From the NCBI GenBank assembly GCA_028534125.1, contig CM052850.1, positions 24,614,001 through 24,677,874 of the forward strand: a stretch of DNA of 63,874 nucleotides, given 5' to 3'. The translations under genes were made by a program, and so were the position numbers. Shown one piece after another: positions 15,201 through 55,254 of this stretch. Each line of letters begins with the position of its first letter. The first letter of the stretch is position 1. The notes beneath the pieces were generated by a model, which saw only the letters and a list, made by a program, of their open reading frames with translations, was not told where the DNA came from and did no database searches. Source of the DNA: Lama glama (lineage: Eukaryota).

Positions 15201-16699
15201 AACAAAGCCCACCCCCGCCAAAAAAACTAAGGCACAAATGGCTTAGACACTATCCCTACTCAGTGGAGGCTGGATTTAAATCCTCAAACCAGACCACCAC
15301 GGCCGTCTGCAGGTAGAGGGTCTCTGCCCTGTACACTGGAGGCCTAACCTGCTCAGACCTGGATTTACATCCTGGCTCTGCAGAGTGACCTAGAACTTGG
15401 GGCAATGTCACTGAGCCCATCTGTAAAGGGATATTGACAATATTGATAATACTGACTTGGTAGGGGCATCTGTGGAGACTAAACAAGTATCTTTAGGGTG
15501 TTTAACCAGGGTCCTGGGTTCATGAGTAGGAAGTTGTAGATTCACGGATGGGCACCCAGGCATTTGGTAAAACCTTGACAGCCACTCTACAAATGTCACA
15601 GGTTTGTGCTTTCCAGAAGGGGAAGGTGTAGGGTTGTAGGTTTGAATAGTTTATCAAAGGAATTCACAGCCTAGAGAAAGGCTAAGAGCATCTGAAGGTG
15701 CCGATAAGGGAAGCTCAGTACTGGGTGCACAGCCAGCAGTCGATAGGTACTATTGCTGTTGTGCCCGTGGTGGTGCACAATTTTATCGCCATGAGTTCTC
15801 TAATGGGTCTTTGTGCCCTTGAGCCTGGGAAGCCAGAGGTGGGGGGGGCAACAGAAGCATTTCTAAACCCCATTCTTTCCACCCCTGGCCTGTAACAAGG
15901 CATCTGGGAGGGTAAATTAAAAGGCAGTCAGTCCTTTGAGGTGGAGTGGAACCAGGGAGAGATGTCTACTTGGCAGCACTAGCTGGACCAAGCAGGGGCC
16001 TCAGTTTCCCCATCCCTAAAACATATGAACAGACAAGACCCTTTCTCAGGGGCCTCTTAAGAGCTGAAAGCTTGGTCTCTGGGAAAAGCCGTCCTTGTCA
16101 TGCCTGTGGCTCTTCCAGTTACTAGGGGGGCCTCCGAATCACAGAGCTGGGGCTCACCCCCCTCCCCTGTACCTCCCACCTCGAGGGAGATGAGGGATTG
16201 GGGAGCGCTTCCATCTGCCACACTTCTGAGGCTCTGAGGCCACTGTGCCCCTCAGTGACTGAGGGCCTTCCCCCCCACCCCCCACCCTCTGCAAAGACTG
16301 AGGGGTAAATGGAGGCCAGGTGGGGCCTGGACTCCGCACTGCCTCCCAGGAAGGCCTAAGTTTTCCCACCCCAAACACACAGGAGCCCCCGAGGAGCTCA
16401 CAGGGAGCCAGTGAAAAAAAGTCCGGTTCAGGAGGTCGGAAAACTGATCTGGGGGTTAGTCAAAGATGGAATCTGCAGCGCCCTCCCAAATGGAGAAGGC
16501 CTAGGAGGGAAGGGGGCTATTAGGAAAAGGGTCCCACCCCAACCCTCCTGCGCTGTAGAGCCCCTCACTTTGGGAGCATCCGGTCAGTGGGGGAGGAGCG
16601 AGAGAAAGGGAGGGGTTACTATCACTTTCTGGGAGCCTGGGGGTTTGCGCTGCACCCCTCGCTGACTTAGGAGCGGGCAACCTCCCCCGCTCGCCTCTT

Positions 16700-20426
<3,727 letters not shown>

Positions 20427-21759
20427 TGAGTGTGCTGCGGAGGCAGTCCCCAAACCGCTTCACGCCCTGGGCCAGAGCCTGTGGCCCGTTCTGCGGGGTA
20501 CTAACCCCAGTGCTGCAGGGAAGCATCAGCTCCCCAGGTGTCTCTCGGTCCTATCTCCCTCCATTTGAGGGATGAGTGCAGCTTGGAATCCCCCAGTGTG
20601 GGCTGAGAGATCGTTTTCTCTTTTAACTTCCAGCTGCTGGCTGCCTAGCCTGGCCAGGTAGGCCCTATCCTCACTAAAAACATTTAGACCCCAATATTCT
20701 AAGTTTCCTCGGGTCCCTTAGCCCCCTAGCACCTCAGCAAGTTCCCAGGATGGAGCCAGGGCCAGCCCCGGCCAGTTGGCTCACCCTCTTCAATCGCCCC
20801 CAGAAAGCTGTGGGAGAGCGGCCTCTGCTCTAAGCTGGGCAGGACAGAAGAGTTAGGCCCGAAGCCGGCTGGGCCTGGCGCGCAAAGGCTCAGCACCCGG
20901 CCTTTCAGGAACCAGGCCTGAGTGTGTGAAAGCTGAGCTGGGGGTATTTTGCGGTGACAGAGGCAGATGGGGGCCCAGATCGAGGGTCAGAGTTGCAGGC
21001 CCCACGGACTCTACTTGTTAGGAACCAGGCTTTCAAGACCCCAGGTACTGCCACCCCGACCCCTCCAAGAAAGAAGATGCACAACCTTCCCCTTGGAGCC
21101 CTTTATCGTGGCCCCCAACAGCAGCCTTCTGGACCCGGTTCTGTAACGAGCTCGGCACGAACCAAGCAAAGGCCTGTCAGGGGTTAGCTGTCAGCTGCCT
21201 TCGGGACACAGGAGCCGGGCCTAGGGGCCAGAGGGCCGCCTCTCCACAGGGGTCGCCTAGCTTGGCCGGCTTCAAACTCCTGGGTGCCAGCTGCCCTGGG
21301 GCTTGGTTCTCCAAGGGGCCTTTCCTCTGGAGAAGCCACCCTTGGCCCCTGTGCTGGCCCCAGCCGGCCCGGCTCACTGCACCGGGACCTCGGCAGCATT
21401 TGGGGTTAGCCTTTGGGGTGGCACAGGCTTCAGGCTGCCCTGGGAGTGGAGGCCTCCGGGCCCTCCCTGCTGGCCCACCTCGGCCCCTTTCACCACTTCC
21501 CCTTCGGCCTCCGGAAGCTCCTGTCCCGGCTCTCGGTGTCCAAGGCAGGAGAGGCCCTGGCAGCCAGCGGGCACTCGGGGGACCGGGACTGTTGCCGGTG
21601 TTCTGGGATCTTCCTCTGGGGCGCTGGGCCCTATGGAGCCCGGGAGCCCAGGGACTTGCGGAGGCGTCGCACAGGGGAGGCCTCGGGCCCTGCGGCCGAG
21701 CCAGGCGGGCCTGCCCTGTACACCCGTGGGCAGCACTGCTTCTCCACCAGGACCTGTGA

Positions 21760-21972
<213 letters not shown>

Positions 21973-23345
21973 GGCCACAGACCCCGGGGGCCCTCCGGGC
22001 ACAGGCTGGCTGGCGCAGGGACCTCGGAACCCGTTGCCAGGAACTGCTTTATTCTCGAGGTATAACCGTCGGCAGAAGAAAAGGGTTTGACCTCTCCCCA
22101 ACCGGATTATTCAGAAAGGAATCCCCAAGGCAAAAACCGAGCAGTGGCCAGCACCTCCCCCCTACTCCCTCAACAGTTTTTAAAAATGGCAGTGGTGGGG
22201 CTTGATCTGACTGCAGCTGTTGGTAAATAAATATCTATTTTTGATCTGTTGAAAGCGGCTGAGAAGGTGCTGTGCTGGGGAAAAACCCTCCACATCTAAA
22301 GAATTCTGCTGCGGTCTCCCCCTCTTCCCCTCCAGCGGCAAACGTCGGGGAAGGCTTTAGGAGAAAGGCAAACGTGTGAGGCCATCAGTACCAAATACTT
22401 GTATTTTGGGGTTGAGTATTTATCTTCTTATTTTTAACTTTTTTTTGGAAAGAATGTCTTGGAATTCGCGTCGCCTTTTAGAGCCGTCTTTTGCAGGGAA
22501 GAGGGGAGCAAGAAATCACCTTCTCCCTCCCCACCTCAGAAGTCCTCCGACCAACCACAGGTGGACCCTTGTGCGAATAACTTGCATTTCTGAAGCCACT
22601 GCTCCTCTTAGGAGAGAAACCAGAAGGCGCCCAGAAGCAGCGGCTCTCTGGCCTCTGCCGTCCCCGTCCGCCTTCCTCTTCTTCCTTTCCTTCAGCTTTT
22701 TGGTTTGGTGTCGAACTTTATCTTGACTTTTTGGGTGAGTGTTCTTCTCCCGAGACCCAGCTGTCTCCCAGTCTCTACTGTAAACCTTCTGGTGGGGGAG
22801 CGGGCGAGCAGGCGCCGCGGGGACGGGGAGGCCCGCTGAGCATGCCTATTCAGGATTGCGGTGACGCAGAAAGGTTAAGGCACTTTTAAAAAGAAAACCG
22901 ATAGCAAGGCTCATCCTGTTATTTATTCTACTTTCTTTCCCTAATAANNNNNNNNNNNNNNNNNNNNNNNNNNNNNNNNNNNNNNNNNNNNNNNNNNNNN
23001 NNNNNNNNNNNNNNNNNNNNNNNNNNNNNNNNNNNNNNNNNNNNNNNNNNNNNNNNNNNNNNNNNNNNNNNNNNNNNNNNNNNNNNNNNNNNNNNNNNNN
23101 NNNNNNNNNNNNNNNNNNNNNNNNNNNNNNNNNNNNTTTTTTAGTATTTTGGCTGCTGGGGTGCAGCGTTTGTGACACGTATTTTAAATTTCCTTCTGCA
23201 CTGTATAAAAATGACAATTTGAGGATGTTTTTGCCTTTTGTGTATTTTTTCCTAGAAAAAGAACAAAAATAAAAATGTGTAACATTTGTACATGGCCTTT
23301 AATATTGTATCAATTAGAAATAAAATCGCACGAGTATTTTATTGG
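21973..23345 (+). other. FOXF1: FOXF1 3' UTR
   Basis: Follows the stop codon, becomes AU-rich distally, and ends in AATAAA signals at 23268-23273 and 23319-23324. Confidence 0.75.
23268..23324 (+). terminator. FOXF1 polyadenylation signals (two AATAAA)
   Basis: AATAAA at 23268-23273 and 23319-23324, with upstream TGTA motifs and downstream T-rich sequence. Confidence 0.7.
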
Positions 23346-35453: not shown

Positions 35454-35942
35454 TCATGGGTCAGCGACGCTAGGGCGATGGTCAGGGTGTGGCTCTTCAG
35501 CATGGCCACCCACCAGATCACTGGCCCTCTGCTGCCTGGCCCGTGCCACCTTCAAGGCATTGGCGCCCAGGTGGAAGCCCTGCAGGCACAAGAGGGCCCG
35601 CTGGGCCGAGGCGGCATCCCGGTAGTGGAGGAAGGCCCTGCGCTGTGGCCCCTGCCAGGTGAGCCGGAGGGGTGCCACACCCAGCACGCCGAGGGCTGTC
35701 TTCAGCTCGCTCACTCGGGCGTTCCGTGGGAGGTTCCCGACATAAACAGTGTTGGAAGGCGCATCCTCCACCTGCCCGGAGCCCAGCTCTGGTGGGGGCA
35801 GGCCCCGCGGCTTTCTGACGACACTTGGGGTGGCCGGAAGGTGCCGGGGCTCATCCCGAAGGGTGACATCCTTCCCAGCCTGCTCCTCTCTGCAGCGCAG
35901 GCTTCTGAGAATTGGGATTTTCCCCAGCATCTCCCAGCTGAT
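35454..35942 (-). CDS. MTHFSD: MTHFSD terminal exon 8 (RRM domain)
   Basis: tttcag|ISWEMLGKIPILRSL...VYVGNLP (RNP2)...RAFLHY (RNP1-like)...ARQQR..., stop ending at 35454. Spliced CDS using one exon 3 is 1167 nt, 388 aa. Confidence 0.93.
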   Translation of the reverse strand: MSWEMLGKIPILRSLRCREEQAGKDVTLRDEPRHLPATPSVVRKPRGLPPPELGSGQVEDAPSNTVYVGNLPRNARVSELKTALGVLGVAPLRLTWQGPQRRAFLHYRDAASAQRALLCLQGFHLGANALKVARARQQRASDLVGGHAEEPHPDHRPSVADP

Positions 35943-43078: not shown

Positions 43079-43204
43079 CTTGGACCATGTGATTCCCGCT
43101 GGCTTAGGGCGCTCACACCCTGTGGTGATAACTCGCGTTGGGGTGAGGATATAGTCCACTGTGAGGTCGTGATCCTCAAGGAGTGTTTCAGGTATGTTGA
43201 CAAC
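43079..43204 (-). CDS. MTHFSD: MTHFSD exon 7
   Basis: gaccag|[42 protein letters not shown]|gtgggt; 126 nt. Confidence 0.95.
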
Positions 43205-43467: not shown

Positions 43468-43580
43468 CTGGCAGTCGTGGACGATGGTGGCCACTGGCGT
43501 CCCCGGGCCGACTGCTCCCATCGACACCATCATGGCGTATTCAAGGTCAGCATAGCCTTCTCCCTTTCCAATTCTCCAGC
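43468..43580 (-). CDS. MTHFSD: MTHFSD exon 6
   Basis: tcttag|(G)[37 protein letters not shown]|gtgctt; 113 nt; [10 protein letters not shown] is the nucleotide-binding loop of the 5-FTHF cyclo-ligase family. Confidence 0.95.
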
Positions 43581-46509: not shown

Positions 46510-46600
46510 CTTTTTCAGAAACAGCCACGGACCCCACCACCACCAAGTCCACAAGGACCCTGGAATCCAAGCCCACGGGAGCGCTGTGGTTCCTCACACC
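46510..46600 (-). CDS. MTHFSD: MTHFSD exon 5
   Basis: ccacag|GVRNHSAPVGLDSRVLVDLVVVGSVAVSEK+G|gtaaga; 91 nt; contains the DLVVVGSVAV motif of 5-formyl-THF cyclo-ligase-like domains. Confidence 0.95.
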
Positions 46601-49018: not shown

Positions 49019-49132
49019 CTCAGAGGTGGCACATCTTCTCAAGACATCTTTCGTTGCCCCGGGGGGTGGTATGATCTTATTAAACAACCCCGTTCTCAGT
49101 CGTGGTGTTGGAACCAGCAACGTTTTTTTGCT
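49019..49132 (-). CDS. MTHFSD: MTHFSD exon 4
   Basis: taaaag|[38 protein letters not shown]|gtaagt; 114 nt. Confidence 0.95.
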
Positions 49133-49705: not shown

Positions 49706-51096
49706 CCCAAGGCCACCACTGTAGATTATGCAGGGTGGGACATAAGGCAATCATACAACTTGTAAACTGTTTCATGTAAAAACAGCATTTTTACTTTTTG
49801 TGCAGGAGATGACAACCTAAGACCAATAAAACACTGTAAAATCAGAGTTTGGCTTAAATAAAGGTTTTCAACCCCAAGAAGATTATTTCAACACAGATAA
49901 CGAGTACGTGCTATTTTCCTTCTGAGTGTGACAGAGGGGGGTCACTCTGTCTGCAGGCTCCAGATCCTAGGGGCACTGCACACTACTCTGCTCAGCCCAG
50001 CTCTGTGGACCTCAGCCCTGGCTGTACACTAGGATCCCCTGGGGAACTCTGAGACTCACCAAGAGCCGATCTGCTTGAGCCTGACTCAGAACCGGTCCCT
50101 GGCCACAGAGAGTCTTCAAAGTTCCCCGAAAGGTGCTACCTTACAGCCAGGGTGCTCAGGCCAGGGGATCTCAAAACACCACCAGGGCATTTACTGTGAA
50201 TAGGCTATAGAACCAAATGAGGGTCTGGGGTTGAGCCTGGGAAGCCGTGCCTCCTGGTGTGGTCTGCGGCCTGTGCATCACCACCCCTGCCTGCAGGGCA
50301 TGCACTTCCCCACCCAGAGTGAGGGGCGCCCCACAGATCGAGGCTTCTCAGGAGCTGTGGGGGACCTGAGTCGTCACCTGAGGTCGAGTGGTGGATGGCA
50401 GAATCCCACAGACCCTGCACTGACATACACAGCACCACACTAACACTGTCAACAGTGCTTTGTTTCGGCAAAAAACATTACCTGTTACATTAAATGAGTG
50501 CTGTTATCCAAATGTTATTGCTTTTCTAATTTTGCTTATATTTAATTTACATGTTTATTTTGGTTTTACAGTTGCATAAGAGCTATGAGCATTAAAATTT
50601 ATGCCAAGTTTTATGCTTATACTTACAAGATTAAGTTATAATAAGTTAAAGTAACCCTGGGGGAATTTTTTTTTCTCAAAAAGGGGCCTATTATATCTAA
50701 GCTAAGAAACACTGTTCTAATTCATATATTTTGGGAACTCATTTATCAGATTTCTCACTCACGGGTTCCTAAGTTTTAAAGAATTTTAGTGTTACAAATG
50801 TAGCAGAGGAAATACACATATTGTAATCTTCTCTTCTGATAGATACATCAGAACTGGGATGACTCAAAGTCACTGTTTCAAAGTGCTTTCTCTTTGAACT
50901 CAGAAATGTTCAGGACTTTTGACTGATGATGAAAAACTTCCAGACAGTCCTGGAAAAAACGACTCCCAGGGCACGTTCTGCATTGAAGGGAGTCATAAGC
51001 ACCATCCTCTAAATGTGGGACTGTGAACACTTGCCAGCACCTGGGGAAGGTGGGCTGGTCAGTGGCCAGGGCTCCAGCTCGGGGAAATGGGATTAC

Positions 51097-51210
51097 CTGC
51101 AGCGCCAGCAGCCGGACGCCTTCCAGCGGTTTATCGGGGTCCACTTTAACTTCCTGCGTTCTGGCAAAAGCCTCGAGGTCTTTGATGTTTTGGCAAGCCA
51201 CATAAGAGCC
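51097..51210 (-). CDS. MTHFSD: MTHFSD alternative exon 3b
   Basis: aaccag|[38 protein letters not shown]|gtaatc; 114 nt, phase 0/0. Confidence 0.93.
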
Positions 51211-51242
51211 CTGGTTAAGCAGACAGACAGAGGTGCACTTAC

Positions 51243-51356
51243 GTCCAGGACGAAGAAGCGGGCATTTTTCTGGGGAGCGTCAGGATTGACTTTAATGGTT
51301 CTGGCCATTTTGAACGCCTGTAAGCGTGGGAAATGCTCAGCAGCCCGAGAAGCACC
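51243..51356 (-). CDS. MTHFSD: MTHFSD alternative exon 3a
   Basis: aaacag|[38 protein letters not shown]|gtaagt; 114 nt, phase 0/0. Confidence 0.88.
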
Positions 51357-51878
51357 CTGTTTTTAAATGCAAGTGCATGTTACTGAGAGGACACGACACT
51401 GGGCCACCCACAGCCTGATGCTCCAGCATCTCACCCAAACAGGCATGTGGGCCAATTCTGAGACAAGATCCAGGGTCACCTGAGAAACATCTAAGGAAGC
51501 AGCCAGGGTGGAAAGAGCTGAGAAGCAGCCTCACTGGGCTTCTTAGGGAGCCAACTGTGTGAAAAGCACCACAACAATCTCCAGCTTTTGGCCAAAGAAA
51601 CCCTTTCCTCTGTCAGCACCACCTTAGCACCACCTCATGGCAAGATGCAACCCACCCACCAACCCTGCACAGAAAAGGAAGAGGCACTTGAGGGTGCAGG
51701 TTAACGCAATGAGGGGCATCTCAAAACACAAAAGTCCTGGCATCTGGTTCGGATTTCACACCACTCACTGCTCACCGAGTTTAAATCCACCGTGAAGCAG
51801 GATGGTAACTGAGTTACTATTGTTACTCATCTAGGAATAGCGTGCTTCCCCGTGAATGTTCCGGGAATGCCTCAGTAC

Positions 51879-51982
51879 CTTGAAGTTGGGAATCCTGTGA
51901 TGAACAGGCCGGGGAAAATCAGCTAAATTTTGCGACTCCATGTAGTCCCAAATCTGCTCACGAATGTCTTGTTTGGAAACAC
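51879..51982 (-). CDS. MTHFSD: MTHFSD exon 2
   Basis: ccatag|GT GTT TCC...; encodes (G)[34 protein letters not shown], then gtactg donor. 104 nt, restoring phase 0. Confidence 0.95.
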
Positions 51983-54900
51983 CTATGGCAATAAAGGGTG
52001 TGACCGATGAACACAAAGACAAGAGCCATGCAGCGCAGCAGTCCCAGGTCACAGGACACCTGCTCCCACTGCACCCTGAGCTCTGCCACACCAGACCAGA
52101 ATCTGGGGCTTCTGATCCCTATATCAAAAAACCCAGGTTAGTGATAGGTTTTACTCTCACAACAAATTGCAAAGAGTCCAAACACTGTAAATTCAACATA
52201 ACCCAAATGTTTAGGCTAGTCTCATGAACTTGGAGCATGAGAACAAATGCAACCCAAACCATGGACCCAAGCATTCCCAAGTCCTCACTTGGAGATGAGA
52301 GTTCTGCTCAGTCAAGGCTGTGATTTCACCCTTGGTCTACTTAGTCTGGAGACAGCCACAATTACTTCACTCTTGCCGTAAGTCCTGCATACTTGCCTTA
52401 AACACAAGTGATTTCTAAGTCAGCTACTATTTTGAATTACCAACTACAATCCCCTTTATTGCAGGAATCTTTTACTCTAGATCCAATTTTGGAAATGAAG
52501 TTTTAGGCAACAGGTATTCTTTAATTATTTGACTGGGGAAGTCCCAATAGAATTTACATTAAGCATGTGCTCCTCTTAGAATGGAGAAAAACAAAAAGCA
52601 GTTTCCAGCTAAGCAGAAAAAGATAAAATCAGCACATTCATCTAAACACACTAAAGTATTCACTGAATTTTTGTTTTCTTGGTCCAGAAGGATATCCTTG
52701 CATTCATACAGAACTTTGTTTCAGATCACTTTGATGTGACGGGGCACCTCTTACCACCCCGGCAGGAAAGAGGGACAGGTTCAAACTCTTGGGTCCTCAG
52801 TCTTCCCTACATGAGTGGAGGCTGCTCCAAGATGACAAGAGGGAACAGTCCCATGGCCAGAGAGCTGGGAGTCACCTGCATGGGTGGTGGGGTGGGGCTG
52901 GCAGCCAGCTCCTCACCATAAACATTTATGAACTGTATGGCTTTGAGTCATATGAATAAATTACATTTTAAAAACTTAATTTTTTGTACATAGGGCTTTG
53001 AAACATACAAACGCATCCATAATGAAAAGCCTCTCCCCATCATCTGCCAAGTACCACGTCCCTTTCCCCAAGGCACTCAGTGCACCTGCTCTTCTTCTGC
53101 ATTCTTCCCCAGGCGCCTCAGGCTCCTCACAGGAGACACTGCCATGCTTGCCCTCACTCTCTTTCCCTGAGGTGCTGCACAATGCATGCAGCTGCACACA
53201 CTGCTCTGAACGCCGCTGCTGCTTGCTGTCTTGCAGATTAGTCCACATGGTACACAAAGAACACCCCCAATCCTCTCTGCAGTTAGACAGTATTCTGCGA
53301 TGGGGGCAGGTCACATTTTACTCAAGTGGTCCCCTACTGATGGGCAATAGATGGTTTCCAACCTTGTTACTGCTGGGTGTCTTCACAACCTTCGCCCATT
53401 TTATGTCAATTTGTTAAACCTCTACAAATAGTTCTAAGGTTTTAAGGGCCAGAGCCAAAGCTTTCTACTGCTTATGCCCTCAGGCTAGACACAGATCCCC
53501 TTGGAACAGCAGCACCCATACCAGACCCTTCACAGCCAGACCCCAGAGCCTTCTGGAGCCCACTGCAAACACTGCGGGTGCCTCTTGACCCCAGCTGTGC
53601 TTCTGAACCACCACAGAAATCAAGAATGCAGATCTGACTGTACTTAGGCAACATGCATCTCCAAAGATGCAGGCCAAGATTATACTGCTGTCGGCCTGGG
53701 TAGGGCTACATGGGTACTTTCCAGTGCTTGGCTTGTTCTTTCCTGCTGGGAGCACTGTCCCTCAGGAAAACCCTTACTCCTCAAGACCCAGCTTTGGCAA
53801 GACCTCCAGAAGTCTCCCTTCCATCCTGCTCCACTGCCCTGGGCCCCTGGCATAGGGTGTGGGATGAGCTGCAAAGCCCTGCTGGCCTCTTTGGCCTCAT
53901 CTCCCATCACCCTTCACCTCTAATTCAGAAAGTGGCCCAACTGTGTTGTTCCCTGGCCCCACACACCTGCCCCTCATCTCTCTTTCAGGCCTTTGTACCC
54001 CTCTCCTTCCTTTCCCCTCCCCGCTTCAGGTCTAGCTGAGATGCCACCTCCTCCAGAAAGCAATCTCTGAGTGCTCGATCACAGACCCATGTTCCTTCTT
54101 TAGGAACCGCCCTCCTTTAGGAACCCAGAGGACCCTCACTGTTTTTTCAAACAGAAACCGTTACATCAATACAACTATTAAAAGGCTATTACATTTATCA
54201 CTTTCACTAATGACCCAGAGGTCCTACAATATCCCCAACACTGTGCAGGATATGGTGTGAGACACAAGAAATGCAGGAATTGTGGCCCTTGCTCCAGAGT
54301 CAATTAATCACAAACATCTGAGTGACTCCCATTTAGAAAGCAGTGGGCTAACTGCAAGGGAAGGGAGAGAATGAAAGGGCAGATCCTTGCCCTTGGAAAG
54401 TTACCAAAACATGGGAAATGATTAGGATAATAAGAGGCGACATATATTAATGTGAGAAGTGCCAGAACCCTGTTCTGTTTTAAGTGCCTGTCAGGTCAGC
54501 ATGAGTCTTGCTCTTCCTTTTACCTCTAGCCCTGGGCCGACCTGGCACTCAGCAGGCGTCTCCAAAGGTCTTTGTTACTATCCCACTGTACTACCAGCAC
54601 CTACTTACTGTGCTGTTTACATGCTGCCCACATTGTAAGGGAGGAGTGGATTTATTCAGGGCTGTCCTCTCGGCTCTAACAGAACTTGGGGCACCAAGAG
54701 CCTTACTAATATCTTTGCCAGGCAATCCTGCGATAAATCACCAAAGCTCAAGGGCCCTGGAGCCAACTTCCTCAGGGCCTGGGACAGCCGAGATCTCAGG
54801 AAGCATTCCTTAAGAGGTCAGTGATGAAGCGCTCCAGCGTTTAGGTTAAACTGGCTTCCAGTCCTGCCCCTGCCGGCAGCTGTGAGCCTGTTTTCCCTTC

Positions 54901-55238: not shown

Positions 55239-55254
55239 CCTCCCTCGGCTCCAT
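55239..55254 (-). CDS. MTHFSD: MTHFSD coding exon 1 (MEPRE+G)
   Basis: gtcgccATGG strong Kozak context at 55254; ATG GAG CCG AGG GAG G|GTGAGG donor; matches the known MEPR- N-terminus. Confidence 0.9.

Follow-up and report, generated by a model that had tools for sequence, protein, structure and literature searches.

Mutually exclusive exons 3a and 3b of camelid MTHFSD: a 32-nt spacer, likely steric exclusion, and a conserved motif swap beside a predicted ligand pocket

Introduction

A splice donor and a branch point are subject to a steric limit of about 50 nt (PMC5740500, PMC7969005), and PMC5740500 counts 57 clusters of mutually exclusive exons (MXEs) as steric. The described cases of α-tropomyosin exons 2/3, α-actinin, and OGDH exons 4a/4b involve duplicated exons with a donor-to-branch-point distance below this limit (PMC7969005), as does the locus analyzed here. 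In those genes, the intron is longer and its mapped branch point lies far from the acceptor, close to the donor, whereas the MTHFSD intron measures 32 nt in all, below the 60–500 nt range surveyed in PMC7969005, and its steric exclusion is deduced from geometry. It also lacks the long AG-free zone of the tropomyosin/OGDH subtype, with the nearest upstream AG of the 32-nt intron at −29.

The closest described pair is the human ortholog. Both human MTHFSD exons are contained in Dataset EV4 of Hatje 2017 (PMC5740500; cluster 1051, frame 0-0, "annotated MXE") as validated MXEs, under a procedure using 15 billion reads in which in-frame exon pairs were rejected on a single joining read. The same human pair is event 139 of Martinez Gomez 2021 (PMC8373072), where the last common ancestor is given as Vertebrata, the proteomics field of MTHFSD is left blank, and the 3b isoform is listed first; 3b is also usually X1 among database isoforms. 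According to the coordinates in that catalog (3a, 86552179–86552292; 3b, 86552033–86552146), the human exons are 114 nt each and flank a 32-nt spacer (86552147–86552178). The camelid pair represents this same event in a second mammal. The exon pair and the event are already known, in agreement with the original prediction that the isoforms were probably not new. MTHFSD receives 0 mentions in the main texts of PMC5740500 and PMC8373072, and the parts of these sources covered here contain no discussion of its spacer, mechanism, or residue swap; in the supplements of PMC9741552 and PMC7954323, it is likewise not found in the parts covered. The literature matches listed, which leave out most subscription papers, include no study devoted to the two isoforms, and this accords with the earlier remark that no functional comparison was known.

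MTHFSD has been described as a stress-granule RNA-binding protein (PMC5773659). It has the fold of MTHFS (5-formyltetrahydrofolate cyclo-ligase, PF01812) but, unlike MTHFS, is fused to an RRM. Here, we describe the exon pair in a camelid genome, the probable basis of its exclusion, and the residues that the swap exchanges.

Results

Gene model and exon pair

The window, a 63,874-nt stretch of Lama glama contig CM052850.1, contains an eight-exon MTHFSD model on the minus strand, which encodes a 388-aa protein with either 3a or 3b. The coding part of exon 1 (55239–55254, with the ATG at 55254) is followed by exon 2 (51879–51982), whose donor is spliced to 3a (51243–51356) or 3b (51097–51210), and then by exon 4 (49019–49132), exon 5 (46510–46600), exon 6 (43468–43580), exon 7 (43079–43204), and the coding part of exon 8 (35454–35942), which carries the RRM domain and the stop codon. 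The gene was identified as MTHFSD by a PF01812 domain with a C-terminal RRM and by orthology to alpaca MTHFSD, to which the 3a form is 99.2% identical. A genome search gave at least one match, and no second locus is present among the genome matches listed. At 35454–35520, the frame continues beyond the end of the human protein, giving camelids a longer C-terminal tail. Elsewhere in the window, a block at about 16000–22000 is rich in GC and CpG, contains long ORFs, and consists partly of N; by synteny, it is presumably near FOXF1, but the unmasked ORF tested from this block had no match in Pfam.

The original prediction described two phase-0, 114-nt exons with canonical ends and a 32-nt GTAAGT...AACCAG spacer, leaving the strand unstated. 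This description is exact on the minus strand, where AG precedes and GT follows each exon and the spacer occupies 51211–51242; a plus-strand reading gave no sensible frame. The donor of 3a is strong (GAC/GTAAGT), that of 3b is GTAATC, and 3a's own acceptor is weak, with a pyrimidine fraction of 0.47. An internal in-frame AG at 51318–51319 (minus strand), 39 nt into 3a, has a better pyrimidine tract than this acceptor; this codon is the first of 3a in bat, narwhal, and catfish gene models, and the next codon is the first in a lamprey isoform.

The proposed origin by exon duplication is well supported. The gap-free alignment of 3a and 3b (12/38 aa and 54/114 nt identical) has a BLOSUM62 score of 60, which was reached by 0 of 100,000 shuffles (mean −33). 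By tblastn within the window, the best non-self match of each exon is the other exon (E 3e-4 and 1.7e-4), with the next-best matches at E 0.65 and 0.62. The exons are adjacent, homologous, alike in length, equal in phase, and bounded by canonical sites, as tandem duplicated exons are. No third copy was found in the window; exon 4, which is also of 114 nt and phase 0, was rejected as a further family member, showing no homology to 3a or 3b. Several database isoforms skip exon 4, and a lamprey isoform skips 3a and 3b together, in frame.

Use of both exons in RNA

Four of the 24 listed RNA runs (three as contigs and one raw) were compared with positions 50900–52050, the raw single-cell run X19 having 0 reads in this interval. 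The joint from exon 2 to 3b, which skips 668 nt with CT..AC on the plus strand, is present in all three contig runs at depths of 33, 21.1, and 30.5, while that from exon 2 to 3a, skipping 522 nt, is present in two at depths of 20.1 and 12.3. Both acceptors are joined to exon 2, as expected from alternative use of the twin exons. The contigs have no coverage at 51212–51328, across the spacer; the database proteins run on from 3a or from 3b into exon 4. Since the depth at the shared exon-2 end (55 and 42) is close to the sum of the joint depths (53.1 and 42.8), 3a seems to account for roughly one third of the messages in these two runs, with the caveat that contig depth reflects abundance poorly. 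In introns, the sequence of the runs departs from that of the window by a few percent, which places their origin in a close relative or in a different population. The contigs also cover intron 2 (51357–51878) and intron 3 (50900–51096), at depths of 15.8 and 13 in run X1, pointing to pre-mRNA, retention, or DNA in the RNA runs.

In human, inclusion of 3a and 3b varies among tissues and stages, with adjusted P values of 0.024 (Atlas), 1.6e-6 and 1.7e-5 (embryonic), and 0.0065 and 0.011 (ENCODE) (PMC5740500). The pair has low Gini indices (0.120 and 0.123), and its listed values are similar in testis (104.5 for 3b, 114.5 for 3a) and in oocyte (PMC5740500). Given the low indices and the similar testis values, the two forms look broadly co-expressed.

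These data bear on a reading in which 3b is effectively constitutive, with 3a reduced to a minor or decaying exon. One of the three contig runs has the 3b joint only, the grey squirrel isoforms described below lack a full 3a, and the peptide cell in PMC8373072 is empty, all of which would fit such a reading. We nevertheless regard it as very improbable. In the best 120 of 136 (3a) and 143 (3b) matches, from which double-exon models and segments with irregular flanks were dropped, 19 of the 38 columns are invariant across 48 distinct mammalian 3a segments and 16 of 38 across 52 distinct 3b segments. Mammalian 3a is constrained as much as 3b. Moreover, 3a isoforms exist in lizard, frog, fish, and lamprey, 3a takes about one third of junction depth where it is seen, and the human testis and oocyte values resemble those of 3b.

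Basis of mutual exclusion

The spacer contains six adenosines, at +3, +4, +9, +27, +28, and +31 from the 3a donor. Since every one of them lies within 31 nt of the donor, and thus below the steric limit of about 50 nt, steric exclusion of 3a and 3b is likely. In this mechanism, the donor of 3a and the branch point of 3b could not be engaged together across the 32-nt spacer, and each mRNA would contain one of the two exons, spliced to exon 2. A branch point further upstream would sit inside 3a, and 3a-to-3b joining would be blocked in that way too. The geometry makes the mutual blocking originally proposed likely, and the human pair is a validated MXE (PMC5740500). Spacer lengths were compared for the camelid, human, and one mammal-like record: the human spacer is also 32 nt, and the read-through ORF of the mammal-like record (P0396, the 1 match in the read-through ORF search) keeps the same register.

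Two other forms of exclusion were rejected. The spacer has no U12 donor motif, the donors being GTAAGT and GTAATC, which argues against a U12-type mechanism; exclusion enforced by the reading frame fails as well, since 114 nt is divisible by 3 and only retention of the spacer shifts the frame. Such retention does cause the frameshift that had been foreseen: the 260-nt composite is translated for 138 codons up to a first stop in exon 4, which precedes the last junction by 407 nt. Nonsense-mediated decay (NMD) acts on transcripts with a stop more than 50–55 nt before the last junction. The spacer-retaining transcript is a predicted NMD target, and decay of the composite may serve as a second safeguard. 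In contrast, spliced double inclusion of 3a and 3b would preserve the frame (426 aa), which puts a spliced 3a–3b joint beyond the reach of decay.

The 32-nt spacer offers no good branch-point consensus, with at most three of six pairings at any of its adenosines. In a variant of the steric explanation, the branch point of 3b would overlap the 3a donor itself (the A at −29) or lie within exon 3a (CTGAC at −70), and U2 binding for 3b would compete with recognition of 3a on the same bases, with exclusivity kept. The sole in-range spacer adenosine with a U at −2 is indeed the one in GTAAG, and the branch-point-like CTGAC (A at 51280) falls within the invariant N-P-D codons of 3a. However, the internal AG of the spacer at −29, the nearest one upstream of the 3b acceptor, intervenes between the −70 site and that acceptor, and a five-letter motif is frequent by chance. 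In the searched portions of the PMC5959240 branch-point supplement, no lariat data were found: there is no match to the MTHFSD name, and among the places listed there is no chr16 match to coordinates converted with an assumed offset. We consider this variant unlikely.

Alternatively, regulatory proteins or RNA pairing might impose the exclusion, the short spacer being incidental. Sterics and frame do not explain most human MXE clusters (PMC5740500), and the tissue and stage differences in human inclusion (adjusted P 0.024 to 1.6e-6) imply that some regulation of the choice exists. Nonetheless, no stable RNA structure above chance was detected in the pair region, which folds no better than its shuffles (z +1.44; as good a fold in 95 of 100), and a 32-nt spacer falls short of the steric limit regardless of any other factor, with an identical length in human. 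Regulation as the source of exclusivity is therefore improbable, and steric exclusion remains the preferred explanation.

The grey squirrel (Sciurus carolinensis) may provide a natural exception that fits the steric rule. Its ten RefSeq isoforms (P0362, P0369, and P0397–P0404, compared as protein sequences only) comprise five in which the initial 13 codons of 3a continue into 3b, four with 3b alone, and one with neither; none of the ten listed has a full 3a or a full 3a plus 3b. Judging from these proteins, a donor after codon 13 of 3a would leave a 107-nt intron if the squirrel spacer is also 32 nt. Lineage-specific loss or remodeling of 3a in squirrel is possible. The counterpart of the CAG at 51318–51319 appears to serve as the donor in the squirrel models, and several squirrel isoforms have an extra 31-residue insert after 3b.

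Among 120 entries each, the 3a search contains 3 proteins with both exons, or with a shortened 3a plus 3b, and the 3b search contains 5, these three among them; a catfish model is of this kind as well. None of them is an isoform-labeled RefSeq record, and we infer that they are ab initio predictions. These five database proteins could instead be taken to mean that the 32-nt intron is spliced and that both exons are retained in frame in a 426-aa protein. Canonical human introns shorter than 50 nt have been reported (PMC5435141), and some aligners ignore introns of this size. Yet for two of the double-exon species, Pteropus alecto and Monodon, the isoform-labeled records carry a single exon each, the human validation permitted no joining read (PMC5740500), and the insert would, in the structural models, duplicate a core strand and a helix. 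Double inclusion is accordingly the least probable of the readings weighed here, and scarcely credible.

Age of the duplication

In lamprey and in toadfish, the X1/X2 isoform pairs differ in the 3a/3b segment only, and frog, lizard, and bird records carry one or the other exon type. In a 29-row tree, the nine vertebrate 3b rows form one branch (87/85) on a long stem of 0.5, while the 3a rows are unresolved amid invertebrate sequences. These comparisons suggest that the duplication likely dates to early vertebrates. On the 38 columns, a separate duplication in lamprey survived an AU test (p 0.246), and a single origin is therefore favored at most. Invertebrates are assumed, from their proteins, to have one exon. 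The 80 metagenome loci kept are all prokaryote-like, with no vertebrate DNA among them; all 80 prefer 3a but were chosen by the 3a motif, so this preference is not usable as evidence for N24, A27, and Q29.

Consequences for the protein

The original prediction contrasted a basic 3a with an acidic 3b. The residue counts hold in the window, where 3a has 7 K/R and 3 D/E and 3b has 5 K/R and 6 D/E, and in mammals the net charge ranges from +2 to +5 for 3a and from −2 to +1 for 3b. Beyond mammals, however, the 3a/3b charges are +1/+1 in lamprey, +1/−2 in toadfish, and +1/0 in two frogs. Charge is thus not a conserved contrast, and the basic/acidic difference is largely mammalian. The conserved difference is instead a motif, N-P-D-x-P-Q in 3a (family-typical) against D-P-D-K-P-L in 3b (derived). 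N-P-D-A-P-Q at 3a codons 24–29 (51270–51287, minus strand) is invariant in the 48 distinct mammalian 3a segments, and D-P-D-K-P-L at the same codons of 3b (51124–51141, minus strand) is unchanged in all but one of the 52 distinct 3b segments from mammals (51 of 52) and also occurs in lamprey 3b.

To place these residues in the family, homologs were collected with the 3a isoform as the query, which introduces a mild bias; of 150 matches, 72 proteins were aligned, and removal of 13 vertebrate-type rows left 59. In these 59 homologs, not identified as vertebrate, A18 occurs in 56, N24 in 50, and Q29 in 50, whereas the 3b letters T18, D24, and L29 occur in 0, 3, and 8. N24 and Q29 co-vary (Fisher p 1e-4, no kinship correction), and the D/L combination also turns up in three non-vertebrate rows, including one from a leech. 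Around an invariant aspartate, 3a displays the family-typical A18/N24/Q29/F34, and 3b displays T/D/L/L. On the other hand, 3b keeps the family-typical K27 (32/59), V32, and L35, which mammalian 3a has lost, so neither exon is purely ancestral.

The prediction that the swap replaces 38 residues of a cyclo-ligase-like domain agrees with AlphaFold models of both alpaca isoforms, whose mean pLDDT is 88.5 and 88.4 overall and about 98 over the swapped exon. In both models, the exon is predicted to form a helix, the first core strand (60–63), a loop, and a second helix (67–78) within the same fold. The MTHFSD fold resembles 2jcb (Z 16.4, rmsd 3.5, 172 aligned) and 3hy3 (Z 15.4), and in this comparison the exon would correspond to the first core strand and loop of MTHFS, the MTHFSD loop being about 4 residues shorter than that of the cyclo-ligases. 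MTHFSD as a true 5-FCL (TIGR02727) was rejected, with 27.1 and 27.3 bits against the equivalog cut-off of 84.9. In two sequence alignments, the invariant D26 aligns with a loop glutamate of bacterial cyclo-ligases. Glutamate E61 of human MTHFS contacts pterin (PMC10545881), and we infer that E61 and the glutamate aligned with D26 occupy the same position. Because N24 and Q29 flank the D26 acid, the swap likely alters the pocket; it would then tune a predicted ligand pocket rather than surface charge.

The COG0212 paralog group is reportedly linked to thiamin. In a scan of 136 ORFs, 1 of 36 prokaryotic homolog loci had a ThiD/ThiN neighbor, a weak signal; the gene concerned, at L032:2968–4314, adjoins the homolog. 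Four loci (L012, L030, L054, and L076) share an upstream PmbA/TldD pair.

Discussion

The MTHFSD pair is a genuine, conserved, and cataloged set of mutually exclusive exons, and its steric explanation, drawn from geometry, is a likely one of textbook type. As both the event and the class of mechanism are known, the finding adds little by itself. The explanation that joins duplicated exons, steric exclusion by the 32-nt spacer, an early-vertebrate origin, and a pocket-tuning swap is held with good confidence. What is new here is that the charge contrast is largely mammalian and that the motif swap is the conserved difference. In a bolder proposal, the spacer would build into the gene a fixed choice between a 3a form that is ancestral and ligand-competent and a vertebrate-specific 3b form with altered or lost ligand specificity; this proposal is speculative and unlikely.

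For work on steric exclusion, the pair amounts to a natural minigene of very small size, to which squirrel is a possible natural exception. What remains of interest is how asymmetrically the two exons have diverged at the predicted ligand loop. The 3b form, probably the reference human isoform, is the derived one, and under the bolder proposal, assays of this form may have overlooked an enzyme activity of the protein. Since the two isoforms differ at conserved residues beside a predicted pocket and are both apparently expressed, assays of this orphan stress-granule protein should cover both.
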